From positions 160,001-224,000 of the forward strand of contig OZ244239.1 in NCBI GenBank assembly GCA_965217115.1: DNA of 64,000 nt, given 5' to 3'. The first letter of the stretch is position 1. Each line of letters starts with the position of its first letter. The notes under the pieces are model-generated. The model had not been told where the DNA came from. It was given only the letters and a program-made list of their open reading frames with translations, and ran no database searches. The stretch comes from Bdellovibrionales bacterium (GTDB lineage Bacteria > Bdellovibrionota > Bdellovibrionia > Bdellovibrionales > CAYMLA01). Shown piece by piece: positions 4,533 through 40,047 of this stretch. Both the position numbers and the translations under genes were made by a program.

Positions 4533-4537
4533 GGGCA

Positions 4538-11800: not shown

Positions 11801-13734
11801 TCTATACCGGCAATCAGTTGAGAGTTTTTAATAGAGACATGGGTCTGTTTAGGGTCTTTTATTTTTGATAAAATTTGTCGTATTTCTTTTTTATCTTTGC
11901 CATAACGAACAGACACAATATAGGGAATCAGCTTAAATTCTCCAGAAGTAAGAACTTTAGGGTCAAGAGGATTCCCAAAGTGATCGAATAAAATAATTTT
12001 CGGTTGTAGAGTTAAGTTAATTCTTATGTTGAGGCCCTTGTTAGACTTATGAGTTTGAGATATCCGAGTGTGGACACTAGGCAAGTGTAGATAACCATAG
12101 TTTTCTGTACGGGTTCCCATTAGATAACTTAAAGCCTCTTCTTCAGAGACAAGAAGTTTTTTCGGAATTTTAGGAGCTTTTGATGTTGTCTGCTCAATAA
12201 ACTCTGGTGAATTTATTTTGTGATCTTTATTCCAAGGATTAATGATAAATTTAATATTACGGGTCCCATAGTGTCTTTTTACACCTGTTATCTTCCGTTG
12301 GATAAGAATATTAGCGGCCTGGGAGATACTGTCATAGGCAAAGCTCTCCTTCCATGAAACACAGCCATCGTCTCCTGTGTTAGCTTTTCGGTGTTCTTTA
12401 CCAATTCTTATAAAGAAGGTTTGTCCTGGCTTCACGATACTGTTATTGAGATTGCTTTTAAGACAAGCGGTAACAGTGTAATCCCTAGCTTGGGTGAAAC
12501 GCCACTTCTTATCGACTTTCGTGCGTATAGAGGAGCCTGATAATTTATGAACAAAGAAAGAGACAGGAGTCGTGAGGGAATAAATATTATCTGGCAAATC
12601 TCCAGCACTCTTCTCATTGACCTTAAACAAAAATGGGATGTATTTTTTTTGTAAACTAAATTTTTGACCGACATTATGCATGTTTTTTTGGAGGAGACCT
12701 GTCTGGGTTTTAAATATGTCCTTTGTCTTTCCCATGCGGTAGATCCCCTCTAAACGAGTTAGACCAGGGGGGGCATTTCTGGGCACAAGGCGTAGAGCCA
12801 ATTCTAGGAATCCATCATGGGCTTGATATTGCAATGTTGTGAGTAAATTAACATCTAATTGGCCATTGACAATAACGGCTTTTTTCTTTGGTACTGAACG
12901 GGTGAGCGGTGTCCGAACGTACTTACCATTTTCGATTGTAACAGCAATAACTTGTGCCCACACGTCAAAGGAACCTTTTTTAAGCTTGTATGCATAGGAG
13001 GCTCCGTAAATGTCGGTTAACGCAATAGATGGCTTTATAGAGAGTTGTAATTCCGTGCTGACACCATTTTTTGAGCGCCCCAATTCGACTCCTGTATAGG
13101 ATAACTTAGGAGCCCATATAAAACGGGTTTTAAGTTTGCCCTGTTTACTCAGTCCTTTGAGGGCATTGTTCACAGCCCCTTTCTCCATAACAAGTGAGCC
13201 TTCAGGGATAGCGCTGGGCTTATTGGGGTCGTCTCTGAGATCCACAAATTCTGGAGTCTTAGAGCCTCTGTCTTGAGTCCATGGATTAAAGGCGATCTTA
13301 AATGGTCTCTGCCCTTTAAGAGTTCCAGTGGATTGAATGTATCCTTTCAGAAAAACGTGCTGGGAATCAGCTAAAAAGTTATAGGGTATGTATTGAGTCC
13401 AACTCAAACAACCGTCCGCATCAGTTTCTGCGCGGGTAGAAACATCTCCGACCTTGATGACAAACGGATGGCCTGGAAGCTTATTATTAGTGATATTCTC
13501 TCTGATACAGGTAGATAGGGCGTATTTTTTTGCCTGGGGAATATCCCAGCCTTTTACGATATTTGTTTTGGCAACCGGACCATCTTTTTCAATTTTAGTG
13601 ATGTAGAAAGAAGCCGCGTTCTCTTCTCTCTTAAGATTCTTATCAGGATCGTGTGGTGTTGGCTGAACACATCCGATAAGTGAGAAGATAGAAATCGGTA
13701 ATATAAACTTTGAGAGGAGACTAAAGCTTTTCAT
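8845..13734 (-). CDS. Giant (~1629 aa) putative lipoprotein with internal domain repeats
   Basis: Start refined to ATG 13734 (GGAG SD; overlaps upstream stop); lipobox-like LIGC; repeated DGC.SW...NPW and LELALRLVP units. Confidence 0.75.
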   Translation of the reverse strand: MKSFSLLSKFILPISIFSLIGCVQPTPHDPDKNLKREENAASFYITKIEKDGPVAKTNIVKGWDIPQAKKYALSTCIRENITNNKLPGHPFVIKVGDVSTRAETDADGCLSWTQYIPYNFLADSQHVFLKGYIQSTGTLKGQRPFKIAFNPWTQDRGSKTPEFVDLRDDPNKPSAIPEGSLVMEKGAVNNALKGLSKQGKLKTRFIWAPKLSYTGVELGRSKNGVSTELQLSIKPSIALTDIYGASYAYKLKKGSFDVWAQVIAVTIENGKYVRTPLTRSVPKKKAVIVNGQLDVNLLTTLQYQAHDGFLELALRLVPRNAPPGLTRLEGIYRMGKTKDIFKTQTGLLQKNMHNVGQKFSLQKKYIPFLFKVNEKSAGDLPDNIYSLTTPVSFFVHKLSGSSIRTKVDKKWRFTQARDYTVTACLKSNLNNSIVKPGQTFFIRIGKEHRKANTGDDGCVSWKESFAYDSISQAANILIQRKITGVKRHYGTRNIKFIINPWNKDHKINSPEFIEQTTSKAPKIPKKLLVSEEEALSYLMGTRTENYGYLHLPSVHTRISQTHKSNKGLNIRINLTLQPKIILFDHFGNPLDPKVLTSGEFKLIPYIVSVRYGKDKKEIRQILSKIKDPKQTHVSIKNSQLIAGIDVDIPGLYKTGDLELALRLVPINNQNHIKRFEGVFDLGSAHKITPGTIFPKNDFLKKNFSFQRDYLDKIPNIADIKGAPSASAFDLETLIIKFKGIRWQTATKRMVDFSVETRVFDGFHGHYIEKEDFTIRMKGEPDDADFPSSDVSTTKESLGKGYLAWTGTIQHKYYSPERYIKKRFILEHKSGFKREFSFYINPWTRGWEFGQDKRINSEERLREMEKRSENALPARLIIANYNLETFDFFTYSVDNFLSLEFHKPFQLQIRPYVIRDTLINGANTSEPLKDGVYLLRVAAKKSYFGVDGQVRDFISPIQKLVTVRNGLIITPIVFTVRDMRLIRLRTFLLIQLETIDLDKVNMIGENLNPHERVSKNFSIEDLKKYTKYNYNALLDKDSGLKTRTFMGPLVMLSNYSSAAMRPTDDLSSSVCETPDCNQLASLQFSSTKAVQMPVKRLYSLDDKSLAEIDDSFKDMTVEKLISRWLRMEKQYLKSMTRQSSFNHFIKNNNLEVIQLSEEPSPESFTKDFTPEIQRENNKVFIDNNGLDGLIKELNRSPLTRDNYGTKPNAKVTQEDINRLFEKGTMSPILVIKMCQLFFKKIINYPNSKGVRLFDVHDNDLLMRSQHLKGEETSFSSSLIKHCGVNLLEGLDNHIVDWDNLLHKKFSRDTPLTKEHIPFPFIIDRKLKVHKTSKVIESAGLALNFNVNTRTSEDAGDSKSNSVAAYFSPLKWIKGVFSQLLSGIGFSASTVRSNYKSRNSNAASGTGIYLSTEMKQILLGFQKYESCITIKLNPESITWDPGIIRRRSLEMKHLINNQYSEQEIFDHLTRGLMLCSGDVIEPSQDDPPKYFRETYYYTTQHFTEGNILDFSNLINHPWLLSVRGLSTFTNFIKQMDGTRVIWESSTRSWRKPNLDDQKDQYPLGFYPVERLALAYAGHLPSTPGFYTLLPGEVFDSENISMETEIDPESLLNQENKDDWKFNDWLEYLTSW

Positions 13735-14869
13735 ATAAAGTCTCCAAGTTAATAAAGTAATGGGATTGGGCCTCTTGAATATTTGATGGATTGATAAGTC
13801 CGCTCTTGCTGTAACCACCGGCAACTTTAAAGTCGTAATTATTGAGTTGTAACCCTAAAGCGACAGAATAGCCGTTGCGATTATTATGACCGTGACTAGA
13901 ACTGTTGTAAAACCCAGGGGAGGTGTCTGACTCATTAAAGAAAGAGCTGACCATTAAAGAGTACACCTGTGATTTTCCATTGAATTTGATTTCTGTGAAG
14001 ATCTCCCGTCCCAAGCGATAGGATGTGGGTGCCTTTTGATTTTCAAGAATATAGCCACCAATTTTTAATTTGAGACTTCGAGTGAGATTGGCACGAAGAT
14101 ATCCGCCGTAGAGAAGTCCATCAAATTTATAGATAAAGTAATTTCGTGGTGAATTTGGACCAATAAAATTAATAGAATTTCCGTAAATAGAACTCTGCTC
14201 TATAACAGTATTAGGTAATTGCGAGAACTTATAATGAGTTAGAAATCCTTGTGCAACGATTCTAGAAGTGATCTTGGCTCCAATGATGAGGCTCTCTGTA
14301 TAAAAAGTAGGTGTGGGCTCCTTAGTAACGGCCTTTGTTGAGAGCGTTGATGAAGAAGGTATCGCCTGCTGTAATCTGAGTTCGGCAAAGAGAGATGGAG
14401 TCTTCCATTTCAATCTCTCTACGAGAGCTGGGAAAGCTTTGGAGCTGACAAGAAGGGGGCTATTGAGATGTTTCTGATTAATAGCTCCTGATCTCATGGA
14501 AAAAAATTTAAAGGGAGCCCATGACAAATAGGCCTCAGAGAGGGAAATTGAATTTGATGGTTTAAAATCCCCAAAATGGGATTGAACACGGCCTGTCCCT
14601 AAATTGGCTGACACCTCTGTTTTAGTATATAGAGAGGGGGTCAGTTGATAACTTATAAGGCCTTTGATGGCAGATTGAGCAATTTGTGATGACTCAGTAG
14701 GACTGTCATAGGAGCTCCCTCCAAAGGAGAGCTTCCACTGTGCTTGATACCGTTGTTCTTTTTCTACAGAGAGGTTGCTCAGAGGATCATTGGCCCATAA
14801 ATCGGCGAGACAAGTCAGAGAACTTGCTAAGATCAAAGCCAATTTAAGAAACTGCCTGTTTTCCATCAT
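13721..14869 (-). CDS. Putative outer-membrane porin-like beta-barrel protein
   Basis: Signal peptide, alternating beta-strands, LSEAYLSW and GHNNRNGY segments. Confidence 0.6.
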   Translation of the reverse strand: MMENRQFLKLALILASSLTCLADLWANDPLSNLSVEKEQRYQAQWKLSFGGSSYDSPTESSQIAQSAIKGLISYQLTPSLYTKTEVSANLGTGRVQSHFGDFKPSNSISLSEAYLSWAPFKFFSMRSGAINQKHLNSPLLVSSKAFPALVERLKWKTPSLFAELRLQQAIPSSSTLSTKAVTKEPTPTFYTESLIIGAKITSRIVAQGFLTHYKFSQLPNTVIEQSSIYGNSINFIGPNSPRNYFIYKFDGLLYGGYLRANLTRSLKLKIGGYILENQKAPTSYRLGREIFTEIKFNGKSQVYSLMVSSFFNESDTSPGFYNSSSHGHNNRNGYSVALGLQLNNYDFKVAGGYSKSGLINPSNIQEAQSHYFINLETLYEKL

Positions 14870-19820: not shown

Positions 19821-19960
19821 TCTAGAGTCTCTCCCAAAAGAATCCAGCCCTTTTCTTGCTCAAACATCCGTTTGTCACCTCCCATTGCAGAAAAATGCAA
19901 TGGAAGTCGCCAAGCCAAACTCGCCGAAAAGAACTGGATTCTTTTGGGAGAGACTCTAGA
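19821..19960. mobile_element. 140-bp long-hairpin element, copy 1 (MITE-like or structured RNA)
   Basis: 27-bp perfect terminal inverted repeat TCTAGAGTCTCTCCCAAAAGAATCCAG; inner stem CCATTGCA/TGCAATGG; three copies in the window. Confidence 0.8.
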
Positions 19961-26225: not shown

Positions 26226-27026
26226 ATGGAAAATCCTAAACGAAAGATGTTTCTATGTATTTTTTTCATTATCACCTTTGCTGGAAATCTCAGTGCAGAT
26301 ATCCCTTGCTCTCCAAGTGAGGAATCTAAGGGAGATTTGATTAAAAAAGTGGCGTACTATACTGATAATGATCGGGTGGTCATTCGTTTCCTACAGAGAG
26401 AGAGCTTCTTTAATTTTGAAATGTGTCTGGGTTCAGATGGCTCTGATTTCCAAGTTGAGAATTTTGACCAGTTTTCGGTCCATGAGTGCAAGCTTCTAAG
26501 CCCTAAATGGGTTTCACTCTCATTTATTGATACCCTTGAATTCAAAGCTCTCTTTCTAAAGAGCTTAGAAGAAAAAGTCGAGGGGGCCAAAGAAATGGCG
26601 AAGATAGTCAATAAAGCCATCTCCTACGCACGTGTATTAGATTCCTTAGCTTTAATGCCGCTTATTTTAACGGAGTCTGCCCTCGTCTATTTGTCTTACA
26701 AGGTTCCTAATATGTTTCCTAGTCGCCTTTCAAAAAAAATCATCCGCCACGCAGCCTGGCTCATTCTCATTTATGTGGTGTACGATATTTATCAGGGCAG
26801 TCAAATTAAAGAAGAGGTGGTGACGGCCCCAGACCATCGAGCTATTTCACTTGAGAGGTTCATTCAAGAACAGAATAAAACAACAAAGGCCCTCAGTCCT
26901 CAGATGCTCAGCACTGAAGCCAACAAGTTGATTTATCTTCTTGAAGAGTCCCTCACAGAAACTCTTGCTCAGTTAGAGAGTGCTGCATCACAGAGATGTG
27001 GTGCCCTTGCTGCTACATCCAATTAA
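26226..27026 (+). CDS. Hypothetical membrane/secreted protein
   Basis: Signal peptide plus two hydrophobic segments. Confidence 0.7.
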   Translation: MENPKRKMFLCIFFIITFAGNLSADIPCSPSEESKGDLIKKVAYYTDNDRVVIRFLQRESFFNFEMCLGSDGSDFQVENFDQFSVHECKLLSPKWVSLSFIDTLEFKALFLKSLEEKVEGAKEMAKIVNKAISYARVLDSLALMPLILTESALVYLSYKVPNMFPSRLSKKIIRHAAWLILIYVVYDIYQGSQIKEEVVTAPDHRAISLERFIQEQNKTTKALSPQMLSTEANKLIYLLEESLTETLAQLESAASQRCGALAATSN

Positions 27027-27084
27027 TGGTAACACTTAAAAAAAACCATGTGAAATGGAACTAACTCATTTTTAGGAGCTCGTT

Positions 27085-27684
27085 ATGGTGAATATTCAGT
27101 GGACCAAGATAGATGACGATAGAATGAAATTCTCTTTGGAGCAGCAAATTAGCTCCAGGGAAGTTCACTACTCCTCAGCACAGAAGGCCAACGTCTCCCC
27201 TATTGCAACGAAAATATTTGGTTTCCCTTGGACCGAATCAATAACCGTGGGAAGTCAATTCGTTACAATCCAAAAACAAAACTGGGTGGAGTGGGATACC
27301 TTAGCCGAACCACTGGCCCAATTAATAAAAGAACACATTCTGACTTATGTTGAATCTTCAAAGAATGGAGAAATTGAGGAAAACCCCGAATTAACTATAA
27401 ATAAAGAGGCGGTTCAATTAAAATCCCCTGAGGCTCAAAAAATTCAACGGCTTATTGAGGAGAGGATTAACCCTGCTGTGGCCGATCACGGAGGTTTTGT
27501 GTCTCTGGTGGATTATAAGGACGAGAATGTGTATGTTAAGCTTGGAGGAGGCTGCCAAGGTTGCTCAATGTCCCAGGCAACTCTAAAAGAAGGCATCGCA
27601 ACTTCTATTATGGAGGCATTTCCTCAAGTCAAAGAAGTGATTGATGTCACTGACCACAGCCAAGGGGAAACACCTTTTTACTGA
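27085..27684 (+). CDS. NifU/NfuA-family Fe-S scaffold
   Basis: Nfu N-terminal scaffold plus INPAVADHGG and LGGGCQGC motifs. Confidence 0.9.
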   Translation: MVNIQWTKIDDDRMKFSLEQQISSREVHYSSAQKANVSPIATKIFGFPWTESITVGSQFVTIQKQNWVEWDTLAEPLAQLIKEHILTYVESSKNGEIEENPELTINKEAVQLKSPEAQKIQRLIEERINPAVADHGGFVSLVDYKDENVYVKLGGGCQGCSMSQATLKEGIATSIMEAFPQVKEVIDVTDHSQGETPFY

Positions 27685-27698
27685 TTTGTATTTCCTTT

Positions 27699-28250
27699 CT
27701 AACGGGTCACCTTGTATCTATTAATGCTCTTATATCTGATCCCCATTAAATCTGCCACTGGAACAGGTTCATAGCACATCTCATGTATCCCCCCTGAAAT
27801 AACTCCCATCCGAACAGGGGTATCTACATGGGGGGAACCAGGAGTTCCAGTTCTTTTATAAACGACAACTCCATGCTCATTTCCAAAGTCACAGTAATCA
27901 TCACCCAGTTGAATAGGAGCAAAGTAATAGTGCTCATTTCCTAGTTTAAAAACTAAGACCTGTGCATTATTGTCAAAGGTAATACCCTCACACTTTGATT
28001 CCCAAGAATCACCACTCCAAAAACTGGAAAAGGGACCATTGGAGTAATCCGTCTCAAAAGTTTTAACTCGGCTTATGCAGTCACTGGACAGAGAAACGGC
28101 TTGACGGAAAAGCTTCTTAGCCTCCTGTGTTTCATCCACCTTCTCAATGGATTTTAAGTCGCTTGAAACATTGTCATAAAAGCTCTTCGAAGAAGCCTGA
28201 GAACTAAAAGGCATTAAAAATAAGATGGGCATCATAAATAGTTTTTTCAT
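27699..28250 (-). CDS. Hypothetical secreted protein
   Basis: MKK signal peptide, four Cys, AAGGA SD. Confidence 0.75.
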   Translation of the reverse strand: MKKLFMMPILFLMPFSSQASSKSFYDNVSSDLKSIEKVDETQEAKKLFRQAVSLSSDCISRVKTFETDYSNGPFSSFWSGDSWESKCEGITFDNNAQVLVFKLGNEHYYFAPIQLGDDYCDFGNEHGVVVYKRTGTPGSPHVDTPVRMGVISGGIHEMCYEPVPVADLMGIRYKSINRYKVTR

Positions 28251-28618
28251 ATCGTCCTTCCCGTGGGTTTGTTTTTGGATCTCATACTAGATTTTTGAAT
28301 AACTGTACATCCATTCAAGGGAAAAACCTGAAAATAGAGGGCCAGTGTATTTTTTTTAAATGGGAGGCTGTGAGATTTACGGGAGGCCCCTCTTAGCTGC
28401 ACCGCATTTTCCTGTTATTTATCACTATAATCACCATCGTCTCTAGCTTGTTATCCATTCAGAACCACCACAGATACTATGGGATTAAAGGGATAAGTTT
28501 GACTTTAGTAAATTTTATAATGTATAAACAACAGGAGCTTTTGACTTAGAGACTCTGCCCATATGCAGAGAACCAGTCAGGCATAGTGTTGTAACCTTCT
28601 CTATCATGGAGTAATGCT

Positions 28619-29341
28619 GTGATTGTTTCAGGTATAGTCCTGCTTATCCTTATCATTCTTTTTTATCTAGATTTTCGCTTGCCTGCCTATAAGCGCGCAT
28701 TGTTTATGAAAAAATATAGAAATCGTAATATCGCCTATGGAATAACTTCTATCTTGGTCGTATCGACACTACAGATAATAAATCAGTATCTAGACGGAGT
28801 CATCCCAAGACTTTCTCCCCTCAGTGACTACTTCTTATTGGATTTAGTAATTTGCTTTTTACTTGCAGAGTTAATTAACTGGGTCGCACATTATATAAAG
28901 CACAAGAGTAACTTTTTTTGGAAATTTCATTTTCAACACCATATTAGCCCTAACTACACTGTATTACTAACGACCCACACTCATTTCCTAGATGTTCTTC
29001 TCATTGGTTCTTTGACGAGCGTTCTATTACAACTCATTGGCGCTTCAGAGCTGAGTATTGGTATTTATTTAAAGTTTTATTTAGTATTTAATATTTATCA
29101 ACACACTAATCGGCCTTTATCTTTAGGCTTCTTAGATAGATTTATTATCTCCCCCGCCTATCACAAATTACACCACGCCAAAGACGGTGATTGTAATTAT
29201 GGCTCTACTTTAACTGTATGGGATGTAATTTTTAATAAAGCACGCTGGCCTAAAGCAACAGATGAAGATTATGAAACGGGTATCGTTAGGGATCAAGAAC
29301 CATTTTCTTATGTTAAAGAGATGCTTTATTTTTTAAAGTAG
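28619..29341 (+). CDS. Sterol desaturase / fatty acid hydroxylase family membrane diiron enzyme
   Basis: His boxes HYIKH, FHFQHH, YQHTN and YHKLHH; NYG..LTVWD. Confidence 0.88.
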   Translation: MIVSGIVLLILIILFYLDFRLPAYKRALFMKKYRNRNIAYGITSILVVSTLQIINQYLDGVIPRLSPLSDYFLLDLVICFLLAELINWVAHYIKHKSNFFWKFHFQHHISPNYTVLLTTHTHFLDVLLIGSLTSVLLQLIGASELSIGIYLKFYLVFNIYQHTNRPLSLGFLDRFIISPAYHKLHHAKDGDCNYGSTLTVWDVIFNKARWPKATDEDYETGIVRDQEPFSYVKEMLYFLK

Positions 29342-29403
29342 GATCAATTAATTGACCCTGAGCATGGGATACTCTCCCCATTCCTTTCAAATCAGGAGAT
29401 AAA

Positions 29404-30558
29404 ATTCCAAGTTTAATTAAATTTAATGACTTTCTAAAAAAATACCCATCTATCAAGATAGCCACTCCAGAAGATAATGAGCGTCTCTTAGCTTTTTGTA
29501 GCACAAAGGATATGAGCAAAAAAGATTTAGCTATAGGCTTTGATAGGGGAAGAGACTATTTCGGTTTTTTAAAGTTCCATTCAGAAAAAACATTAGTCTT
29601 ATATATAGAGAGAGATAATAATATTCTGGGAATGGGTGCATTCATTTTTAGAGACGGCAGAATAAACTCAGAACAAGTCTCTCTTGGTTATTCTGGAGAT
29701 CTTCGAGTAAAATTTGATAGAAGGGCTGCCGTTTTATGGAGAAGGTTTTATTCAGATTTCTTAAAAAATATCCATAGGTTTGAAGAGTATAGTCATTGCA
29801 AGTATTTTTTAACTGCAATTATGAATGGTAATAATAAAGCTACACAGGCGTTAGTGAACAATGCTAGATCTTCTTACTCCTATGAACATCAAGCTGATTT
29901 TAATATGGTCAATATTTTCTTAAAAAAGCCATTTAAGAGAAGACAAAATACAGAAATGAAAGCTTTAAGAGCCAGAGATGAAGATAAAGACTTAATTATG
30001 AACTTTTTAGAGAGGGAGCATAAAAAGAAAAAATTTGGTTTCTGTTTTAACTCTAATTATAATGAATTAGAATATAGACTGAAGAACTGGGAAGGTTTCT
30101 CTATGGAAGACTTCGTAATAGTTAAAAAGAACAATCTTATCGTAGGAGTCACAGCCCCATGGTCCCCTAGCCCGCATAAAAAAATAATTCTAAAAGAGCT
30201 TAATTTCTTTCAACGGAATTTAATTAGATTTTTGGCCCTTTTTATTAATATTCCTAGAGAAGGGGAAGAGTTTTTAGTCCAGTATTTAACATTGTTAACT
30301 ATAGAAAACGATCTGCCTGTAGAGGAGAAAAAGAAGGCCTTAAATCTAATGGTCACCGATGTTTCGGAGAGAGCCGAGCATAAGAAGTATCACGCCCTCT
30401 GCTATTTAGATTTCTGCACGGAAGCACCCCTAGTTTCTGGTTTGAATGACTTTTTTCTATCGAAGATAAAATTTAATTTATACCAAGCTTCTGATAAGGA
30501 CTTCATTGCTGGTTCTGATAAAAACAAGAACATAGCCTTTGAAATAGCTTTAGCGTAA
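29404..30558 (+). CDS. GNAT-like acyltransferase (first ATG at 29512; likely N-terminus from ATT 29404)
   Basis: In-frame upstream IKIATPEDNERLL; YSGDLRV, TAIMNGNNKA and LRARDED tandem-GNAT-like segments. Confidence 0.65.
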   Translation: MPSLIKFNDFLKKYPSIKIATPEDNERLLAFCSTKDMSKKDLAIGFDRGRDYFGFLKFHSEKTLVLYIERDNNILGMGAFIFRDGRINSEQVSLGYSGDLRVKFDRRAAVLWRRFYSDFLKNIHRFEEYSHCKYFLTAIMNGNNKATQALVNNARSSYSYEHQADFNMVNIFLKKPFKRRQNTEMKALRARDEDKDLIMNFLEREHKKKKFGFCFNSNYNELEYRLKNWEGFSMEDFVIVKKNNLIVGVTAPWSPSPHKKIILKELNFFQRNLIRFLALFINIPREGEEFLVQYLTLLTIENDLPVEEKKKALNLMVTDVSERAEHKKYHALCYLDFCTEAPLVSGLNDFFLSKIKFNLYQASDKDFIAGSDKNKNIAFEIALA

Positions 30559-30769
30559 GATGTCTCTGGCGAGTCCCCCCCTCTTTGTAGAATTTGAAAT
30601 GCCGCATCAATTGAATCTTCTAGAGGCTCAAGCACAGGAGGGGCCCAGTATTCAAGTAAATTTAGACGTTGACCAAAATCTTCGATTAAAATAAATTACC
30701 CCCAGAAATGGCGTTAAAAATCATGGGGATTTGATAAAATATCTAATGATGCTGAGGGGAAGCCATAGA

Positions 30770-31777
30770 ATGACCACGACCACCTTTAATAAGGATTTCT
30801 GGTATGTTGCTCTAAGAGAGCGGGATCTAAAGAAAAAGCCTAAAGCTATTAAAATATTAGGTGTTAACCTTGTTCTCTATAGATTAGGTACTCAGATATA
30901 TGCCTTAGAAGACCTATGCCCCCATAAAAAGGCCCCTCTCTCATTAGGGAAAGTTAAAAATAATAGGCTCACCTGTGCCTATCATGGGTGGGAATTCAAT
31001 CACGTCGGCGAGTTGGTTAATATTCCAAGTCAGGAAAGGGTTTTTAAATGTAAGATAAAAAACTATCAAGTTGAGGTTCGTTCTGATCTCATCTGGATTT
31101 TTATGAATCCTAACATAACCCCAGTGGCAAACCAGAATGCTTTTGAAGTTAAGAAGGGCTATTCTTCAAATATTTTTGTGAATAAAATACGTGCATCATC
31201 AAAATTAATCCTAGAGAACGCATTTGATTGTACTCACACCTCACATTTACATGATGGCCTGTTTCGTTTGAGTAGAACTTTAAATAAAGTTAAGAGTAAA
31301 ATCCTAACAACTCCAAAGGGAATTAGTGTAGAAACCTTTGAAACCAAAAATATTAAATCTCTTTCAATGTTTCTTTTAGGGACAGGAGAAATGAAGCATA
31401 TTGATGCTTATCATGCTCCCTCTACTGTAAGGGTCGATTATTGGAAAGGCTTGTTTCATAATGTAACTGTATTACACACAACACCTATTGATGAAAATGA
31501 AACTATGGCTTTTACTCGGATGGATATAAAAGCTCCTCTAGGGCTTTCAGTTCTGTTAAACTTTTTTTTAAAAGTTCTCGTCTCCATAGTTATTAAACAA
31601 GATAAAAAAATTCTTGAGGCTCAGGCAAAATGCATTCGAGAAGATGGACTGATGAATTTTATCAGTGTTGAAGGAGACTTAGCATCAAATGTTTTCTTAA
31701 AAAAATATGATGAGATTCATCAGAAAAAGAAGAGTCGTCGTACTGAGCTTTCTAGAGAAGCTCAATTTTATATGTAG
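30770..31777 (+). CDS. Rieske non-heme iron oxygenase (VanA-like alpha subunit)
   Basis: CPH..LS..CAYHGW Rieske motif; ENAFDCTHTSHLH mononuclear Fe motif; QD..ILE.Q; start refined to ATG 30770. Confidence 0.9.
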   Translation: MTTTTFNKDFWYVALRERDLKKKPKAIKILGVNLVLYRLGTQIYALEDLCPHKKAPLSLGKVKNNRLTCAYHGWEFNHVGELVNIPSQERVFKCKIKNYQVEVRSDLIWIFMNPNITPVANQNAFEVKKGYSSNIFVNKIRASSKLILENAFDCTHTSHLHDGLFRLSRTLNKVKSKILTTPKGISVETFETKNIKSLSMFLLGTGEMKHIDAYHAPSTVRVDYWKGLFHNVTVLHTTPIDENETMAFTRMDIKAPLGLSVLLNFFLKVLVSIVIKQDKKILEAQAKCIREDGLMNFISVEGDLASNVFLKKYDEIHQKKKSRRTELSREAQFYM

Positions 31778-31805
31778 ATAGAGAGAAAAAAAGGGGGGGT
31801 AAAGC

Positions 31806-32597
31806 ATGAGTCAATCCAAAATGGTCGTTGCTGTATTCAAAGAAAATCAATTATCTGATGAGTTAAAAGAGCAGATGTGGCAGTTATATGTGGAGAACTA
31901 CAACGATGTGACTCGCCAAGAATTTGAAAAAGACTTAAAAAAGAAAAATAAGCTCTTCATTGGTTGTGATAAACATACAAAAGAATTCGCTGGGTTTAGC
32001 GCCATGGAATTCTACACCGAATATGTTAATGGCAAAAAAATCTCTGTTATTTACTCTGGTGACACGATGATTAAGAAACAGTATTGGGGACAAAAAGGGT
32101 TGCACAATAGATTCTACATAGAGGCTTTAAAGCATAAATTAACCCATCTATCCACTCCCCTATACTGGTTTATGGTATGCATGGGCTATAAAACATACTT
32201 AATCATGGCAAAGAACAGTCTTGAATATTGGCCAAATTATAATAAGAAGACGCCTGAAGATAATCTCCAAGTGTTAAATACGATTGCTGGAAATAAATTT
32301 GGCAATGCCTATGACCCTAGTTTAAATATTATTAATACAAAAGGGGTGGGCTGTACGTTGGACCCCTCTGTTGCTAGGATAACTAAAACTGTATTAGAAA
32401 TACCTGAAGTTTCATTTTTCATCAAAAGAAACCCTAAATATGCTGAAGGAGCTGAACTGGCAAATATTTCACATCTCAATCTAAAATGGTTCTTATATAT
32501 CACTTATAAACATACTTTTGGCCTTTTACTAAAGAAGCTAAAGAAAAATGTTCTTCCTAATCTTAGAAATAAAATAAAGGGGGCACAGGGTGTATGA
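31806..32597 (+). CDS. Hypothetical protein with probable GNAT-like fold
   Basis: AGFS, YSGDTMI..QYWGQKGL (acyl-CoA-binding-like motif A) and YWFM. Confidence 0.55.
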   Translation: MSQSKMVVAVFKENQLSDELKEQMWQLYVENYNDVTRQEFEKDLKKKNKLFIGCDKHTKEFAGFSAMEFYTEYVNGKKISVIYSGDTMIKKQYWGQKGLHNRFYIEALKHKLTHLSTPLYWFMVCMGYKTYLIMAKNSLEYWPNYNKKTPEDNLQVLNTIAGNKFGNAYDPSLNIINTKGVGCTLDPSVARITKTVLEIPEVSFFIKRNPKYAEGAELANISHLNLKWFLYITYKHTFGLLLKKLKKNVLPNLRNKIKGAQGV

Positions 32598-33525
32598 TTC
32601 TGCCTATGAAAAAATAATTAAAAAATCTCTGCGTTCAAGAGTTGAGACATATAAGAGTAAAATGCCCTATTATTGGGGAGCTAGTTTTTTCAACTTAGAT
32701 AAAGTAGCTGCATTTAATGAGTTAAATGAAGAAAAAAAGACAAATATCCTAAGGAATTGCTCTCAAGATATCATTGTGGAGGGAATCCATATAGAAAATA
32801 GAGGTATAGATATGGCCTCATTTATGATCCAAAAAACAACTCTTACAAATGAGAAGCATATTTATTCCTTAATAAATGCGGATGAAATTGAGCATTATTA
32901 CATACTCAAACGCTTCCTCTTTAGCGCCCCCTCTCCTGAAGATGAAAACCCTTTTATCTCCTTGATGAAAGAGTGCATCAACTCCGCCGACAGTTACCGC
33001 ATAGTCTTTTTTCTCCAAGTTATTTTAGAGGGTTGGGGCATGACTTATTATAACGGTCTTATGAAAGCCTGCCTAGAGCCAAATTTACAGAAGAGTCTTA
33101 GCCGTATCCTACTTGACGAGTCATCCCATCACAGCGTAGGGCTTATTCATTACAAAAACCATCAAGGACAGACAAGGGCCCAACTCAATAAAATGATGGA
33201 TATCTTGGCTGCTCTGCTCGGGATGCTAAGAGCCGGTCCCCAGAGAATCATTGGATGTATTGAGAGAGAAACGGAAGGGTTGACACTTTCTGGGAAAAGA
33301 AAAATTTTCGAAGAAATCAAAGCTCAGCAAGCTGCCCAAAGGCAATTGGATGCTGTGAAAACTCTATTAAGGCATGATCTGTCCAATGAGCTTGTGGATA
33401 GATTAGATAAGCTTAATCTCTTTACTGCCATGACCTCCAAAGAATATACTATGAACCTTCAAAAACATTCTACCACTCCTCAAGAATACACTATGAATTC
33501 CAGAGAACATGCCATGGAACTTTAA
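32590..33525 (+). CDS. Ferritin-like diiron protein (oxygenase/desaturase-like)
   Basis: Two DExxH motifs (DEIEH, DESSH) with upstream Glu-bearing helices (HIENRG, VILEGWG). Confidence 0.8.
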   Translation: MYDSAYEKIIKKSLRSRVETYKSKMPYYWGASFFNLDKVAAFNELNEEKKTNILRNCSQDIIVEGIHIENRGIDMASFMIQKTTLTNEKHIYSLINADEIEHYYILKRFLFSAPSPEDENPFISLMKECINSADSYRIVFFLQVILEGWGMTYYNGLMKACLEPNLQKSLSRILLDESSHHSVGLIHYKNHQGQTRAQLNKMMDILAALLGMLRAGPQRIIGCIERETEGLTLSGKRKIFEEIKAQQAAQRQLDAVKTLLRHDLSNELVDRLDKLNLFTAMTSKEYTMNLQKHSTTPQEYTMNSREHAMEL

Positions 33526-33527
33526 TC

Positions 33528-34160
33528 ATGACCTTTCTGGCTAGAATCGTCCCTTTCTTTCCCGTGTTCCTATATATTCTTCTCTTGGGGGAGTTTGTTT
33601 TTACTATTAATGTTGATCCCCTACTTGGCATCACCCTTATTTTATTTACTCTCTACCTATTACCTATACTCATATTTCGAATACATAATATTTTTTATCC
33701 CATTAAATCCGAAGTCATTGATTTAAATATAGGCAAATATATTCCTTGGTGGGGCAGTTATTACTTTCAGAGGATTTATTTTGATATTCCTGTGTTGGAA
33801 TCGATTTTAAAATCTTTCCCTGGATTATATAGTTTCTGGTTACGGCTATGGGGAAGTAAAATTGGTAAAAATATTCACTGGACCCCTAAAGGCACGATCA
33901 CTGATCGTTTTTTACTAGAAATTGGGAATAATGTGGTCTTCGGTTATGAAACGATCCTGACCCCCCATTTCATCACCCCAATCAACGGGATTCAGAGTTT
34001 ACTCTTAGAAAAAATAAAAATAGGCTCAGACAGTTTCATTGGTGGATATAGTGTAATTGCTCCGGGATGCGTAATTCCTGAGAAAAGTTTTCTTCCTTTT
34101 GAGAGTCGTTTAAAAATACGAACTAATTGGGTGAACAGAGATGATAAAGCTAACCCTTAG
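33528..34160 (+). CDS. Membrane-anchored left-handed beta-helix acyltransferase
   Basis: WLRLWGSKIGKNI, LEIGNNVVFG and IKIGSDSFIGG hexapeptide repeats. Confidence 0.8.
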   Translation: MTFLARIVPFFPVFLYILLLGEFVFTINVDPLLGITLILFTLYLLPILIFRIHNIFYPIKSEVIDLNIGKYIPWWGSYYFQRIYFDIPVLESILKSFPGLYSFWLRLWGSKIGKNIHWTPKGTITDRFLLEIGNNVVFGYETILTPHFITPINGIQSLLLEKIKIGSDSFIGGYSVIAPGCVIPEKSFLPFESRLKIRTNWVNRDDKANP

Positions 34161-35589
34161 AATTCTATCTTATTTCCCATATAAAATGTTCGAAAAAGGA
34201 TTGAAAGACCCTGGAATAGCTCAACAAGATATTTTGAAACGAGTTATCTGTGAAGTCACGAAAATAGATCATTACAGACAATATGGTGATATTTCTACCT
34301 GCAACTTTAAAGAAAAAATCCCCATTAGTGATTACGAAGATATACAGCTATCTGTCAAAAAATCTTTAAATGGAAAAAACAATGCCATCGTTTTTGGGAA
34401 AGTGAAACTCTTTGAAAAAACATCTGGTTCTAGCGGTGGATCGAAATACATCCCCTACACAAACAAAGCCTTAATCGATTTTTACCAAACTACTCTTATT
34501 TGGATTTATGACATCATTACTCATCATAAATCATTAAAAACCTTTAAAATGTTCCTTAGTATCTCCCCTTCTTTTCAGGAAAAAGAAGAGAATGTCAGTC
34601 TAGAAAATGATGATGAGTATTTTCCCTATTTGTTTAGAAAGCTTCTGAGTAGAATACTCCTGATTCCTAAAAATTTGAAACAAATTAAAACCCCAGAAGA
34701 GTATGATCGGAATCTCTTATCATTCCTCGTAGAACAGAAAGACTTAGAAATTATCTCAATTTGGAGCCCCAGTTATTTACTCGTGTATCTAGAAAAACTA
34801 GAAGCCGATTATTCAGATTTGAGACATAGAGCCAAGAGAGAGCTCCCCGAAAAATTAGATCTCAATCTCCTCTGGCCTCATTTAAAATTCATCAGTGTAT
34901 GGGGGGATGACGTGGCAGAGGAAGGGTTTCAAAAGATTAAGGAGATTTTTCCAAAAATCCAAATCCAGAAAAAAGGACTCCTCTCTACGGAGTTTCCAGT
35001 GACAATACCTCTTCTTAAGAATCCAAAGGGGCATTATCCATTACTACAACTTGTCTATTTTGAATTCATAAAGGATGGACACTCCCACTCTTTATTGGAA
35101 GTTAAAAAGAACGGGATCTATACACTCGTATTGTCCAAACCAGGTGGATTTATTCGATACAATACTCACGATCGAGTCAAAATTATTGATTTCGATGGAA
35201 GAGTGCCTATCCTAGAATTTGTTGGTCGAGACGGGATTGTCAGTGATCTTGTTGGTGAAAAGTTAAATGCCACCTTTGTCGAAGAGACTCTTAAACTATT
35301 ACTTAGAGATCAAGCCTATCTAATGGCCTGCTATGAGGGGGATGAGTATTTTTACACCCTATTTGCTAATCAGGAAACCAATCTAAGTCAATTAGAACAG
35401 AAACTCTGTCAAAATGTTCATTACAACTATGCAAGAAAAATCGGTCAGTTAAAAGATCTTAAGCAAGTTGTGTGTAAATCTCCAAACATTGAGTACATAG
35501 AGACAAAAAGAAAGAATGGCATGAAGTTAGGAGATATAAAATTCTCCTACCTCATGAAATTAGAACAGAAACTAGAGGAAACCGTATAA
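34141..35589 (+). CDS. GH3-family acyl-acid amido ligase
   Basis: IPISDYED, TSGSSGGSKYIPYT P-loop, STE, YFEFI, RY..HD.V and F.GR...SDLVGEKL motifs. Confidence 0.88.
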   Translation: MIKLTLRILSYFPYKMFEKGLKDPGIAQQDILKRVICEVTKIDHYRQYGDISTCNFKEKIPISDYEDIQLSVKKSLNGKNNAIVFGKVKLFEKTSGSSGGSKYIPYTNKALIDFYQTTLIWIYDIITHHKSLKTFKMFLSISPSFQEKEENVSLENDDEYFPYLFRKLLSRILLIPKNLKQIKTPEEYDRNLLSFLVEQKDLEIISIWSPSYLLVYLEKLEADYSDLRHRAKRELPEKLDLNLLWPHLKFISVWGDDVAEEGFQKIKEIFPKIQIQKKGLLSTEFPVTIPLLKNPKGHYPLLQLVYFEFIKDGHSHSLLEVKKNGIYTLVLSKPGGFIRYNTHDRVKIIDFDGRVPILEFVGRDGIVSDLVGEKLNATFVEETLKLLLRDQAYLMACYEGDEYFYTLFANQETNLSQLEQKLCQNVHYNYARKIGQLKDLKQVVCKSPNIEYIETKRKNGMKLGDIKFSYLMKLEQKLEETV

Positions 35590-35693
35590 TCGATGCCTGA
35601 GAGTTCTTGAGGTGTCTAACCCCTTGCGTAGATTGTCAGTTTAGAGTTTTAAAAAAAATTCTTTATGCCAAACAATAGTGGAGCCAGTTTTTT

Positions 35694-35833
35694 TCTAGAG
35701 TCTCTCCCAAAAGAATCTAGCCCTTTTCTTGCTCAAACATCCGTTTGTCACCTCCCATTGCAGAGAAATGCAATGGAAGTCGCCAAGCCAAACTCGCCGA
35801 AAAGAACTGGATTCTTTTGGGAGAGACTCTAGA
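35694..35833. mobile_element. 140-bp long-hairpin element, copy 2
   Basis: Two substitutions relative to copy 1; flanked by T and A runs. Confidence 0.8.
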
Positions 35834-35935
35834 AAAAAATGCCATATTCAATCAATCAGTCAATATGAACAAAAAGCACAGATTTTTAAACAAAAAAGAG
35901 GAGACCAAATGGCCATCCTCTTAATCCTGTTGATT

Positions 35936-36532
35936 TTACTTGGGGCACTCTATCAGTTCAGTATCTACATGCATCGATGAAATAGAAAAAGTCTCAGGGT
36001 TATAAGTTCCGCTGAAATAAGTCGTATAACAGGTTTTCGCTTCTTCATCATATCCCACTGCCCCTTGCCTAACTGCTGAGAGTAAGCTGAGAATACTCTC
36101 TGTACCAGAAGCGACACTTGCCAAAACACCTGAATCACTTGTCTCTCGCTCTAATATCCCACTGGGAACACTGTACTTACGCTCGGCACCCCAAACCGTT
36201 GTTTCAACCCATATCTGAGTTGAACCTAAATACCTTAAAGAAAGTGATCTTCCCACTGGTACGGTTATAGTGTATTTTGCAACTTGAGCCACGAAGAGAC
36301 AACGAGCGCAGGTTCCTTTGTCCAAATAGAGATTTTCCCCAATCTTAGTGGCATTGATCTCTTTAATCTCTAAAGAAGTCACGCTCACCTTAGGTTCGCC
36401 CATTAATGGGTGATTCCTAGTATCAAATTTAACTGAGAGTGTACTCGACCCTGAATCATCAGAACTCTGTCCCTGTGCAAAGCCTGAAAATGAGATTATT
36501 AAAAATACCATTCCAATAATTAGCTTCTTCAT
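35936..36532 (-). CDS. Hypothetical secreted protein, paralog A
   Basis: Signal peptide, CxxC; extended -10 TGGTATAAT at 36573-36581. Confidence 0.8.
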   Translation of the reverse strand: MKKLIIGMVFLIISFSGFAQGQSSDDSGSSTLSVKFDTRNHPLMGEPKVSVTSLEIKEINATKIGENLYLDKGTCARCLFVAQVAKYTITVPVGRSLSLRYLGSTQIWVETTVWGAERKYSVPSGILERETSDSGVLASVASGTESILSLLSAVRQGAVGYDEEAKTCYTTYFSGTYNPETFSISSMHVDTELIECPK

Positions 36533-36818
36533 TCAATTCTCCCATGTTTACAGTTTATTTACTAAGTCTTGCATTATACCACAGACCCCATAAATAAGCG
36601 AGGGAGTCCCCCATCCATAGCCAATGACAGAGTAATATTTACAAATTTAAAAATACCTTAGAATCGAGTCACTAGGAGATATAAAATCCTCCTATCCCAT
36701 GAAATTAGAACAGAAACTATAGGAAAACGTATAAATAAAAGGGACAGATTTTTAAACAAAAAAGAGGAGACCAAATGGCCATCCTCCTAATCCTGTTGAT
36801 TTTACTTGGGGCACCCTA

Positions 36819-37484
36819 TCAGTTCACTATATCGGGGCACTTTATCAGTTCACGATATGAATTCATCGATGAAATAAGAAGAGTTTCAGGGTTATAAGTT
36901 CCTCTGAGATAAGTCGTATAACACACGTTAGCATAAGTCGTAGAACACGTTTTAGTTTTTTTAGAACACGTTTTAGTTTTTTCACTCTGTGTCACTGTCA
37001 CTTCCCCTCGCCTAACTGCTGAGACTAAGCCGAGAACTCTCCTTGCACTAGAAGCGACTTTTCTCAAAACATATGAATCACTTGTATCTCGCTCTAATAT
37101 CCCACTGGGAACACTGTACTCACGTTCGGTCTTAGCTGTTTTCTCATGCCATATAAAAGTTAAACCTAAATGCCTTAAAGAAAGTGATTCTTCCAATGGT
37201 ATGATTACAGTGTATTTTACAGCTTGATGCAGCATGAAGATACACCAATGGCAGTTTTCTCTTCCTTTATCGAGATAGAGATTTTCTCCAATTTTAGTGC
37301 CACTTTCTTTCAGTCTAATCTCTAAAGAAGTCACGTTCACCTTAGCTGCACCCATTAATGGGTAATCCCTAGTATCAAATTCAACTAAGAGTGTATTCGA
37401 CCCTGAATCATCAGAGCTTTGCTCTTGTGCAAAGCCTGAAAATGACATTATTAAAAGTGCCATTCCAATAATTAGTTTCTTCAT
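36819..37484 (-). CDS. Hypothetical secreted protein, paralog B
   Basis: Paralog of 35936-36532; internal 21-bp duplication at 36941-36982; extended -10 at 37525-37533. Confidence 0.8.
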   Translation of the reverse strand: MKKLIIGMALLIMSFSGFAQEQSSDDSGSNTLLVEFDTRDYPLMGAAKVNVTSLEIRLKESGTKIGENLYLDKGRENCHWCIFMLHQAVKYTVIIPLEESLSLRHLGLTFIWHEKTAKTEREYSVPSGILERDTSDSYVLRKVASSARRVLGLVSAVRRGEVTVTQSEKTKTCSKKTKTCSTTYANVCYTTYLRGTYNPETLLISSMNSYRELIKCPDIVN

Positions 37485-38364: not shown

Positions 38365-39066
38365 TTACTTTATTTTTTCAAAAATAAATTGACCTATGTA
38401 TTCTCCAGTCCTTCTATGCACACCCTCTTTAAAATCCGTGTCCTGTGAGGAAGAGGTTAACAGAGATATAAACTCTGAAGAATTTGAATTAAAAGAAGTA
38501 AATCTATTTCCAGAATCAGTGCCTGCATCATATAGAGGTAAGTTCAATACTAATTTCCGCTCCCACTGCCCGTTACTATCCAGTAGAGACAGACCATGCA
38601 CACCTACAAACCAGTCAGGACTTGGGGCAATCATACTAATTAAAGTGACTAAGGGGTGAGATTTATTGACATCAAACTCTATAGCTACCGAAGCTGTTCC
38701 AGAAGGTAAACCAGAGCTACTCAATAAAAATTCTGCGAGACCCTTATTTTTCTGCTCTTGAATTTCATCTTTGAAATCCCCCTTTGAACCAGTTTCTGCC
38801 ACAGTTTCTATTCCCTGGGTGGCTAACTGATTTCTCCCCCAAAAGCTCACTTTGCTATTATGGGTCGTCCCTATTAGGCCAGAGAAGTGATCCCTGTTAA
38901 CAGGAAAATGAGTGGGAAATCCACTGACCGTCCAATTGGGCTTAAAAGTGATCCGATAGGTGACATCTGCCTCTATATCTCTATCTGAGGAATTTTTTGC
39001 CTGACAAAGTGCCGCGATAAAAAGAGAAGCAAAAACCCATTTAATAACATACATAGAAACTCCCAA
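38365..39066 (-). CDS. Secreted Spondin_N-domain protein
   Basis: HFSGLIGTTH, AETG, MIAPSPDWFVG and YDAGTDSG motifs. Confidence 0.9.
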   Translation of the reverse strand: MGVSMYVIKWVFASLFIAALCQAKNSSDRDIEADVTYRITFKPNWTVSGFPTHFPVNRDHFSGLIGTTHNSKVSFWGRNQLATQGIETVAETGSKGDFKDEIQEQKNKGLAEFLLSSSGLPSGTASVAIEFDVNKSHPLVTLISMIAPSPDWFVGVHGLSLLDSNGQWERKLVLNLPLYDAGTDSGNRFTSFNSNSSEFISLLTSSSQDTDFKEGVHRRTGEYIGQFIFEKIK

Positions 39067-39908: not shown

Positions 39909-40047
39909 CTAGAGTCTCTCCCAAAAGAATCCAGCCCTTTTCTTGCTCAAACATTCGTTTGTCACCTCCTATTGCAGAGAAATGCAATGGAAGTCGCCAA
40001 GCCAAACTCGCCGAAAAGAACTGGATTCTTTTGGGAGAGACTCTAGA
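39908..40047. mobile_element. 140-bp long-hairpin element, copy 3
   Basis: Three substitutions relative to copy 1; same orientation. Confidence 0.8.

Follow-up and report, generated by a model that had tools for sequence, protein, structure and literature searches.

A conserved gene cluster around a bacterial GH3 ligase and several iron oxygenases in a Bdellovibrionales genome

The window studied here is a stretch of 64,000 nucleotides from a Bdellovibrionales bacterium (GenBank assembly GCA_965217115.1, contig OZ244239.1, positions 160,001 to 224,000 of the forward strand). At window positions 28619–35589 it carries a conserved gene cluster built around a bacterial GH3 ligase and several iron oxygenases, composed of seven genes that we call g1 to g7 (Table 1). 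GH3-dependent synthesis of amide lipids in bacteria was first shown in 2025, for one planctomycete enzyme, and according to its authors most bacterial GH3 homologues are of unknown role (PMC12493201).

Table 1. Genes of the cluster and copies of the dispersed repeat, in window coordinates
Feature	Positions	Strand	Basis	Size
g1, FA_hydroxylase-superfamily His-box membrane hydroxylase/desaturase	28619–29341	+	PF04116	240 residues
g2, tandem-GNAT acyltransferase with N-myristoyltransferase-like fold	29404–30558 (ATG reading frame from 29512)	+	predicted fold	
g3, Rieske [2Fe-2S] non-haem-iron oxygenase, VanA-like alpha-only	30731–31777	+	Pfam, motifs	348 residues
g4, GNAT-fold acyltransferase of an unnamed family	31806–32597	+	predicted fold	
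g5, ferritin-like diiron-carboxylate protein, putative oxygenase	32590–33525	+	conserved ligands	311 residues
g6, membrane-anchored left-handed beta-helix (hexapeptide) acyltransferase	33528–34160	+	profile search	210 residues
g7, predicted GH3-family ATP-dependent acyl-acid amido synthetase	34141–35589	+	Pfam	482 residues
Palindromic MITE/REP-like repeat, intergenic	19822–19959, 35695–35832, 39909–40046		three copies	about 140 bp

A reading made from the letters alone, referred to below as the original prediction, had described seven co-oriented genes with the last five tightly packed or overlapping. A check of the open reading frames (ORFs) of the window bore this out, with all seven found at the predicted places on the + strand. 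The successive gaps from g1 to g7 were 74 (170 when the ATG start of g2 is used), 172, 28, −8, 2, and −20 bases, the start of g5 overlapping the end of g4 and the start of g7 overlapping the end of g6. The catalytic residues of the cluster, comprising the GH3 nucleotide motifs, the Rieske and mononuclear-iron ligands, the diiron ligands, the His boxes, and the histidine of the left-handed beta-helix (LbH) protein, were all intact, and no gene was interrupted. A promoter-like site lies inside the 172-base gap between g2 and g3, and the terminator scan found no strong terminator within the cluster or directly after g7. The overall counts from the scan of the region (16 promoter-like sites with 27.8 expected, and 12 terminator-like sites with 6.7 ± 2.9 expected) were uninformative.

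A profile-guided scan of one genome per species yielded 586 GH3-encoding stretches, and the best 80 of these were taken with at most 10 kb on each side. The family counts, made with several seeds per family, are lower bounds, since several loci were cut by contig ends. Around the GH3 gene, the hexapeptide transferase was present in 70 of the 80 loci, FA_hydroxylase in 65, Rieske proteins in 61 (with one to four copies), a 2Fe-2S ferredoxin in 54, an AurF-like diiron protein in 51, g5 in 50, and g4 in 47. Far fewer loci held a short-chain dehydrogenase/reductase (SDR; 12), an MMPL protein (5), a GT2 glycosyltransferase (4), a GMC oxidoreductase (2), or an FA_desaturase (1), and g2 was found in none. 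When the 1334 ORFs of the 80 loci were grouped by single-linkage clustering blind to the window, the same eight families, and no others, were both frequent and common to different phyla. By the titles of their records, the loci belong to Cyanobacteriota, Melainabacteria, Sericytochromatia, Pseudomonadota, Myxococcota, Bdellovibrionota, Gemmatimonadota, Acidobacteriota, and Planctomycetota. The original prediction had named a lack of co-occurrence in other genomes as one of the results that would refute it, and on this point it clearly stood. A histidine kinase with PAS/GAF domains was also considered as a cluster member, as it occurred in 20 loci, but it was rejected because its positions were scattered and its hosts mostly cyanobacterial.

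The gene order of the cluster varied in extent. The full form, exemplified by Calothrix PCC 7103, runs g4, Rieske, g5, AurF-like, Rieske, ferredoxin, Rieske, FA_hydroxylase, hexapeptide transferase, and GH3, while some Nostoc loci were reduced to FA_hydroxylase, hexapeptide transferase, and GH3, and Gemmatimonadota loci carried Rieske, g4, and GH3 next to an MMPL gene. The cluster in the window is itself a reduced form, without the ferredoxin and the AurF-like protein that recur in relatives and with a single Rieske gene, where the full cluster has three. Profile and similarity searches of the 64-kb window found no polyketide synthase, nonribosomal peptide synthetase (NRPS), acyl carrier protein (ACP), ferredoxin, SDR, MMPL transporter, or AurF-like protein. 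The claim of the original prediction that reductase, transporter, and regulator are missing thus holds for the reduced version in the window, but not for the relatives, among which ferredoxin, SDR, exporters of the MMPL or the MFS/HlyD/outer-membrane efflux (OEP) kind, and a TetR gene were found.

Such a reduction, together with the promoter-like site that parts g2 from g3, might also be taken to mean that the seven genes are neighbours without a shared function, or that the cluster is decaying and inactive in this genome. We regard this as very improbable. Synteny is kept across phyla, no gene is broken and no catalytic residue lost, and a Bacteriovoracaceae locus (L001) keeps the same reduced order Rieske-g4-g5-g6-GH3 at 41–47% identity, with an FA_desaturase gene ahead of it.

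The product of g7 belongs to the GH3 family, as it scored 89.1 bits for Pfam GH3 and 40.9 bits for GH3_M against a cut-off of 23.6 for each. All three GH3 nucleotide motifs, as defined in PMC12493201 ((S/T)SG(T/S)(S/T)xGxxK, YxxSE-like, and YRxGD-like), are present as TSGSSGGSK at residue 94, KGLLSTE at residue 278 (with E284 as its last residue), and RYNTHD at residues 339–344. The residues T94, S95, G96, K102, T283, E284, Y340, and D344 were invariant in 28 homologues, and motif I is one residue shorter than its plant counterpart. The best matches among solved structures were the plant enzymes GH3.12 and GH3.5 (E 1.6e-10), which aligned only locally, over residues 16–125 and 304–370 of g7. 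The nearest GH3 relatives (P0002–P0008) were 41–51% identical to g7. A complex prediction for the GH3 protein with the hexapeptide transferase, made without controls, scored 0.00 in both runs, which speaks neither for nor against such a complex.

The three candidate oxygenases of the cluster belong to different classes. For g1, g3, g6, and g7, the domain calls of the original prediction were confirmed directly by Pfam or NCBIfam. With 89.9 bits for PF04116 (FA_hydroxylase, cut-off 31), g1 carries the His boxes HYIKH, HFQHH, and HKLHH at residues 91, 104, and 182 and three hydrophobic segments. Its top NCBIfam match was the ornithine-lipid hydroxylase OlsE (NF052566), with which it shares the His-box diiron superfamily; however, its score of 71.5 bits lies so far under the equivalog cut-off of 475 that g1 falls outside the OlsE family and is not an OlsE equivalog. 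The product of g3 is a VanA-like alpha-only Rieske protein (Pfam Rieske 82.9 bits, VanA_C 56.7 bits) with the motifs CPH-x17-CAYH at residue 63 and NAFDCTHTSHLH at residue 163, and it has a hydrophobic segment at residues 266–290. In the PDB search its nearest solved sequences were SxtT/SxtDIOX (E 3e-22), followed by DdmC and NdmA. The product of g5 reached 21.4 bits for Pfam Ferritin_2, under the cut-off of 24.7, but the diiron ligand set E...ExxH...E...ExxH is complete, with E69, E99, H102, E147, E177, and H180 invariant in 24 homologues, so the earlier ferritin-like diiron call was upheld. The g5 family profile gave weak matches only in the PDB, to designed diiron proteins and an aldehyde-deformylating oxygenase.

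These assignments bear on an alternative in which the cluster tailors isoprenoid lipids, the oxygenases turning a methyl group of a sterol, hopanoid, or carotenoid into a carboxylate that the GH3 enzyme conjugates to an amino acid. The best NCBIfam match of g3 was indeed the sterol 4-methyl monooxygenase SdmA (NF052579), PF04116 also takes in sterol desaturases and carotene hydroxylases, and MMPL proteins with a sterol-sensing domain, GMC oxidoreductases (the cholesterol-oxidase family), and SDRs occurred among the 80 loci at the frequencies given above. However, g3 scored only 75.2 bits against the SdmA cut-off of 600, and no cyclase, prenyltransferase, or other isoprenoid gene recurred among the 1334 ORFs. 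In addition, the FA_desaturase and Mpo1-like domains of relatives and the N-myristoyltransferase (NMT)-like fold of g2, described below, indicate straight-chain acyl groups. We consider the isoprenoid explanation unlikely.

Three putative acyltransferases accompany the ligase. Neither g2 nor g4 matched a Pfam family, and searches of g2, g4, and g5 against the sequences of PDB chains gave nothing useful, so that the class of g2 and g4 was resolved only by fold prediction. Their look-alikes by protein language model were Gcn5-related N-acetyltransferases (GNATs). The AlphaFold2 model of g4, built with 25 aligned homologues from related loci, had a mean predicted local distance difference test (pLDDT) score of 92.3, and Foldseek matched it to AAC(2ʹ)-Ia, NatD, and other GNATs at E of about 1e-6. 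The model of the 380-residue form of g2 (pLDDT 93.1) was matched as a tandem GNAT, with NMTs on top (E 8e-12, template modelling score 0.5–0.6). Judged by these models, both proteins have the GNAT fold, and the two GNAT-like calls made earlier are refined to a single GNAT for g4 and an NMT-like tandem GNAT for g2.

The start of g2 also needed revision. The frame 5ʹ of the ATG at 29512 is open and encodes an N-terminus that matches conserved residues of the homologues, 699 relatives in a 50%-identity representative library having about 32 additional N-terminal residues. An AGGAGA sequence at 29394–29399 is followed by in-frame ATT codons at 29404 and 29416. Because the open frame encodes the conserved N-terminus behind AGGAGA, the true start is probably one of these two non-canonical codons. 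A gene call restricted to ATG would cut the conserved residues, about 32 in number, from the protein.

The C-terminus of the g2 family (...PGFEMALV) is strongly conserved. In NMTs, the C-terminal carboxylate is the catalytic base. We take this parallel as a lead only. Like g2, the eukaryotic NMTs have the tandem-GNAT fold and end in a conserved C-terminus, but they are only 8–12% identical to g2, g2 itself matches no Pfam family by sequence, and other tandem GNATs such as MAB_4324 matched g2 almost equally well. That the acceptor of g2 would be a protein N-terminus is unlikely.

For g6, the single sequence scored 24.4 bits for Pfam Hexapep, under the cut-off of 27, whereas a profile of 26 homologues matched the galactoside O-acetyltransferase LacA (E 6e-10) and the maltose O-acetyltransferase Maa (E 9e-8). 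H147 was invariant, and g6 was assigned to the hexapeptide (LbH) acyltransferases; its residues 1–56 are hydrophobic and precede a single beta-helix domain. In almost every locus that has the g6-family gene, the GH3 gene follows directly after it. The top NCBIfam match of g6 was the terminal domain of the Pls/PosA NRPSs (TIGR02353, E 1.4e-9), a family defined by its cut-off score and by six transmembrane helices with three tandem domains.

This last match raises the alternative of a carrier-independent amide polymerisation or envelope decoration, in which the GH3 enzyme would activate an amino or hydroxy acid and g6 would repeat amide bonds like the C-terminal membrane domains of epsilon-poly-lysine synthetase, giving a short poly-amide on a lipid or on the envelope. 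The overlap of g6 with g7, their nearly constant adjacency in relatives, and the transmembrane helices ahead of the beta-helix would fit such a scheme. However, the Pls/PosA score was 36.9 bits against a cut-off of 423.1, which leaves g6 outside that family, and the g6 profile matched the sugar O-acetyltransferases better. No fused or longer GH3 form was found by search, which is weak evidence, and the scheme leaves the oxygenases without a role. We consider it quite improbable.

The neighbours of the cluster in relatives include several proteins of lipid type. These were the FA_desaturase (L001 and L083), an Mpo1-like 2-hydroxy-fatty-acid dioxygenase domain, a GT2/GT21-like glycosyltransferase, ICMT/PEMT, and PAP2, and MMPL/sterol-sensing exporters of the resistance-nodulation-division (RND) type were present in 5 of the 80 loci. 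The match of the AurF-like proteins of the relatives to the arylamine N-oxygenases was weak, at 19.4 bits for a cut-off of 29.6.

A further alternative is that the cluster serves the metabolism of soluble small molecules. The GH3 enzyme would then, as in plants, conjugate an aromatic or other soluble acid with an amino acid, while ring hydroxylation or demethylation would fall to the Rieske and diiron proteins, and the outcome would be a signal, a detoxified compound, or an intermediate of catabolism. VanA-like Rieske enzymes and the nearest solved relatives of g3 (DdmC, NdmA, and SxtT) use small molecules, the closest solved GH3 structures are those of plants, and the resemblance of the AurF-like proteins to arylamine N-oxygenases, weak as it is, points the same way. 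In contrast, two of the conserved proteins are membrane-embedded, and the recurrent neighbours are lipid enzymes and exporters of lipids or amphiphiles. Moreover, neither a ring-cleavage enzyme nor a catabolic regulator was seen in the annotated loci, and no uptake transporter recurred. Small-molecule metabolism is thus, in our judgement, an unlikely role for the cluster.

An accessory module was observed in seven of the loci (L005, L008 at 1659–4567, L027, L030, L031, L033, and L067), in which an amidohydrolase of about 700 residues, fused to the Mpo1-like domain, is accompanied by a SnoaL-like protein. These loci are Melainabacteria-like, from Legionellales, or alphaproteobacterial. In L011, L052, L068, and L071, small separate ORFs of about 130 residues clustered with the amidohydrolase-Mpo1 family.

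Taking the genes together, we propose that the seven form an operon that makes and tailors a membrane-associated, oxidised, and multiply acylated lipoamino acid, that is, a lipid of the N-acyl amino-acid type, a proposal to which we give about an even chance. The closest precedent is OlsH of Singulisphaera acidiphila (UniProt L0DAW6), a GH3-like enzyme that makes N-acyl ornithine from a free fatty acid with ATP and Mg2+, after which OlsI, an alpha/beta-hydrolase, adds an ester-linked acyl group to complete the ornithine lipid (PMC12493201). Activity of OlsH was confined to extracts. The lipoamino-acid reading is supported by the conserved linkage of the genes, the OlsH precedent, the intact active sites, and the operon spacing. 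That the product is a lipid is suggested by several independent lines, all of them circumstantial: g1 is an integral membrane protein, and hydrophobic stretches are present at the N-terminus of g6 and within g3; OlsE, although the score is far under its cut-off, is the NCBIfam family that g1 matches best; the fold of g2 is nearest to the NMTs, which use fatty-acyl-CoA; and lipid enzymes, together with MMPL or tripartite exporters, are among the neighbours in relatives. The original prediction guessed at an oxidised, acylated amide, which fits the OlsH reaction, and of the three product types then offered (signal, lipid, or toxin) the evidence favours the lipid.

The pathway might run as follows, its substrates, order of steps, and product being our inferences from the observed gene content, motifs, predicted folds, and synteny. 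[quoted passage not shown] The amino group of an amino acid would then accept the acyl group directly, with neither coenzyme A (CoA) nor a carrier protein involved, as in the OlsH reaction. Next, g1, g3, and g5 would hydroxylate or desaturate the acyl chain or the head group, with electrons presumably drawn from a host ferredoxin, as this cluster is without its own and most relatives encode one. The hydroxyl group could then be esterified by g6, comparable to the role of OlsA or OlsI in ornithine lipids, and g4 and g2 might put further acyl groups on free amines. The product would be retained in the envelope or exported.

Several points weigh against this proposal. Plant GH3 enzymes take aromatic or cyclopentanone acids, and the nearest solved Rieske relatives of g3 act on small polar or aromatic molecules (saxitoxin precursors, dicamba, and caffeine) and not on lipids. 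The cluster in the window comes without ferredoxin, reductase, or exporter, and each of the lipid-related neighbours is confined to a minority of the loci. Neither an alpha/beta-hydrolase such as OlsI nor a methyltransferase such as OlsG was found among g1–g7, the ORF at 35729–35980, or the annotated loci of relatives. Furthermore, the list of orders with OlsH homologues (at least 30% identity over at least 70% of the length) in a 2026 review includes Acetobacterales and names neither Nostocales nor Bdellovibrionota (PMC12971839); going by this list of taxa, g7 is probably not an OlsH orthologue.

The GH3 ligase and g4 were also found together on distant replicons. In a tblastn search, 5 of 72,556 plasmid records matched, all through distant GH3 proteins of less than 30% identity, and three of the five, with sizes of 3.5–4.1 Mb, look like chromosomes filed as plasmids; the cluster is thus not commonly plasmid-borne. 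The gene surroundings of three of the matches were analysed. On the IncF plasmid NZ_CP134684.1 of Citrobacter portucalensis (L081, 7118–16436), the GH3 gene and a g4 homologue (29% identity, E 2e-30) overlap, and after this pair come four radical S-adenosylmethionine (radical-SAM) genes, a tandem GNAT of the g2 family (hhalign probability 97.6%), and a phosphatase of the PAP2 type. In the 4.1-Mb record NZ_CP104448.1 of Acinetobacter baumannii (L082, 5632–12996), HlyD and MFS genes lie on one side of g4-GH3 and an outer-membrane efflux gene on the other, and this flanking suggests that the product is exported. Transposase and integrase genes were observed just upstream of this set. Burkholderia arboris has the genes in the order g4, g2 (E 1e-23), an unknown gene, FA_desaturase, GH3, and Rieske, and a TetR gene lies close by.

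In A. baumannii and Citrobacter, g4 is directly upstream of the distant GH3 gene, and in Burkholderia it is in the same cluster. From these gene orders, g4 and GH3 are the most constant pair and the widest core of the cluster, with oxidation and export modules that vary. As g2 stands beside g4 and GH3 in Burkholderia and on the Citrobacter plasmid, we count it as a genuine though occasional member, despite its absence from all 80 loci.

A broader proposal, which we offer tentatively and hold to be less likely to be right than wrong, is that g4 and GH3 form the core of an unrecognised pathway family in many phyla, which would make amide lipids or amphiphiles without CoA or carrier and then oxidise them with an interchangeable module, the products being exported as surfactants or signals or serving as outer-membrane lipids. 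Aerobes would use O2-dependent Rieske, diiron, and His-box enzymes, cyanobacteria with up to six oxygenases and a ferredoxin, and the enterobacterial plasmid version would use four radical-SAM enzymes instead. The Citrobacter locus sits on a mobilizable plasmid and could be the oxygen-independent equivalent of the cluster with its many oxygenases. Exporters stand beside the g4-GH3 pair in Acinetobacter, Gammaproteobacteria, and Gemmatimonadota. If this broader proposal is true, a new class of oxidised, multiply acylated lipoamino acids is being made unnoticed by Nostocales, Melainabacteria, Bdellovibrionota, Legionellales, Burkholderia, and Acinetobacter.

The base composition of the cluster was compared with that of the window. 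The two spot counts given in the original prediction, 15 G or C letters of 60 in the line at 29761 and 31 of 60 in the lysS line at 7501, were exact. The G + C (GC) content was 0.399 in the window and 0.355 at the cluster, which had the lowest value among 115 sliding 7-kb stretches, and the cluster genes had a mean of 0.354 compared to 0.409 ± 0.026 in the 43 other ORFs (Mann–Whitney p 9e-5). At third codon positions (GC3), the values were 0.342 and 0.370, respectively (p 0.05), and the deficit, modest in size, was present at all three positions. In a FastTree tree of 86 GH3 proteins, a quick method that gave long-branch warnings, g7 fell in a fully supported group of nine, apart from the other 77, together with a Bacteriovoracaceae (Bdellovibrionota) sequence and seven metagenomic proteins. 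LysS of the window was 68–73% identical to its best matches, and those named by organism were all from Bdellovibrionales or Bdellovibrionota.

A recent horizontal acquisition, as had been proposed, is therefore weakly supported: it has the modest GC deficit in its favour, while g7 groups with Bacteriovoracaceae of its own phylum and LysS with Bdellovibrionota. Given these two affinities, the cluster appears to be at home in Bdellovibrionota. Its low GC could reflect an older transfer, protein composition, or weak expression.

The hairpin element at 35695–35832, which the original prediction took as the end of the cluster, proved to be one of three dispersed copies of a palindromic repeat (Table 1) and is neither specific to the cluster nor a signal of its boundary. 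The copies are about 97% alike over the element, with perfect terminal inverted repeats of about 30 nt plus an inner hairpin, and the 23-nt arm occurs six times in the window, as three inverted pairs, with none expected. The copy after g7 has a folding energy of −78 kcal/mol (z −11). On both strands its stem is preceded by T-runs and followed by A-runs, and it is therefore no canonical terminator. The repeat looks like a dispersed element of the genome, akin to miniature inverted-repeat transposable elements (MITEs) or repetitive extragenic palindromic (REP) sequences, and lies outside the pathway. An Rfam scan of 27000–37000 gave one sub-threshold match on it, to a plant miRNA hairpin (MIR1862, 41 bits against a threshold of 84), which was taken as a chance hairpin match. 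The ORF at 35729–35980, which lies largely inside the repeat and has no Pfam or NCBIfam match, is probably spurious.

Other genes of the window are listed for completeness. Directly downstream of the cluster, two tandem paralogues on the − strand (35936–36532 and 36819–37484; 58% identity, E 5e-81) have signal-peptide-like N-termini and no Pfam match. About 0.9 kb 5ʹ of the cluster, with a convergent gene in between, lies a NifU/Nfu-type Fe-S scaffold gene (27085–27684, + strand), whose product could serve the Rieske protein g3; no gene of this type was found in the annotated loci of relatives. An ORF of 1659 residues (8845–13824, − strand) matched no Pfam family at E ≤0.001, and at 38365–39066 on the − strand there is a secreted-looking protein with a Spondin_N domain (158 bits), a domain known mainly from animal extracellular-matrix proteins.

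The cluster would be a second and far more elaborate setting for GH3 amide-lipid chemistry. It is conserved in filamentous cyanobacteria, in relatives of these that lack photosynthesis, and in Proteobacteria that live as predators, inside cells, or as opportunists. If its product is a lipid, this would be a new class of membrane or surface lipid, of relevance as a biomarker, in adaptation of the envelope, or in the interaction with host or prey. Rule-based detection of biosynthetic gene clusters may miss the pathway. For enzymology, the cluster offers a predicted amide ligation that needs no carrier and is coupled to membrane acyltransferases, a tandem GNAT of bacterial origin with an NMT-like fold, and a set of Rieske and diiron oxygenases.

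Full-text literature searches turned up no description of a cluster that combines GH3 with Rieske, diiron, and hexapeptide genes. The plant GH3 enzymes JAR1, GH3.5, and GH3.12 share with g7 the Pfam family and the adenylating fold, and they form an acyl-AMP and then an amide with an amino acid; however, their substrates are hormones, and their genes do not stand in operons with oxygenases or acyltransferases. The legionellol surfactant cluster of Legionella pneumophila likewise holds a GH3 gene inside a lipid or surfactant cluster, namely lpg2225, whose product was proposed to attach a modified ornithine to the acyl chain (PMC5640695). This role is a proposal and not the result of an assay, and the legionellol cluster is built on ketosynthase III, ACP, and acyl-CoA ligases, none of which occurs here, and its published gene table contains no Rieske, diiron, GNAT, or hexapeptide genes.

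The OlsH/OlsI system comes closest. In both cases (by prediction for the present cluster), the amide bond of the lipid is made independently of CoA and ACP by a GH3-like, ATP- and Mg2+-dependent ligase with three recognisable nucleotide motifs, the second acyl group comes from a separate acyltransferase, and enzymes that modify the head group or the chain are encoded nearby. The differences are that the present cluster has a GNAT, a tandem GNAT, and a membrane beta-helix transferase in place of OlsI and the N-methyltransferase OlsG, and that three to six iron oxygenases are added in clusters of the present type. According to the authors of the OlsH study, most bacterial GH3 homologues probably use other amino acids (PMC12493201). 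The cluster is best filed with GH3-dependent amino-lipid synthesis and not with the OlsH/OlsI pathway. The general chemistry of GH3 amide lipids is published, while the architecture described here, its breadth across phyla, and its interchangeable oxidation modules are not.

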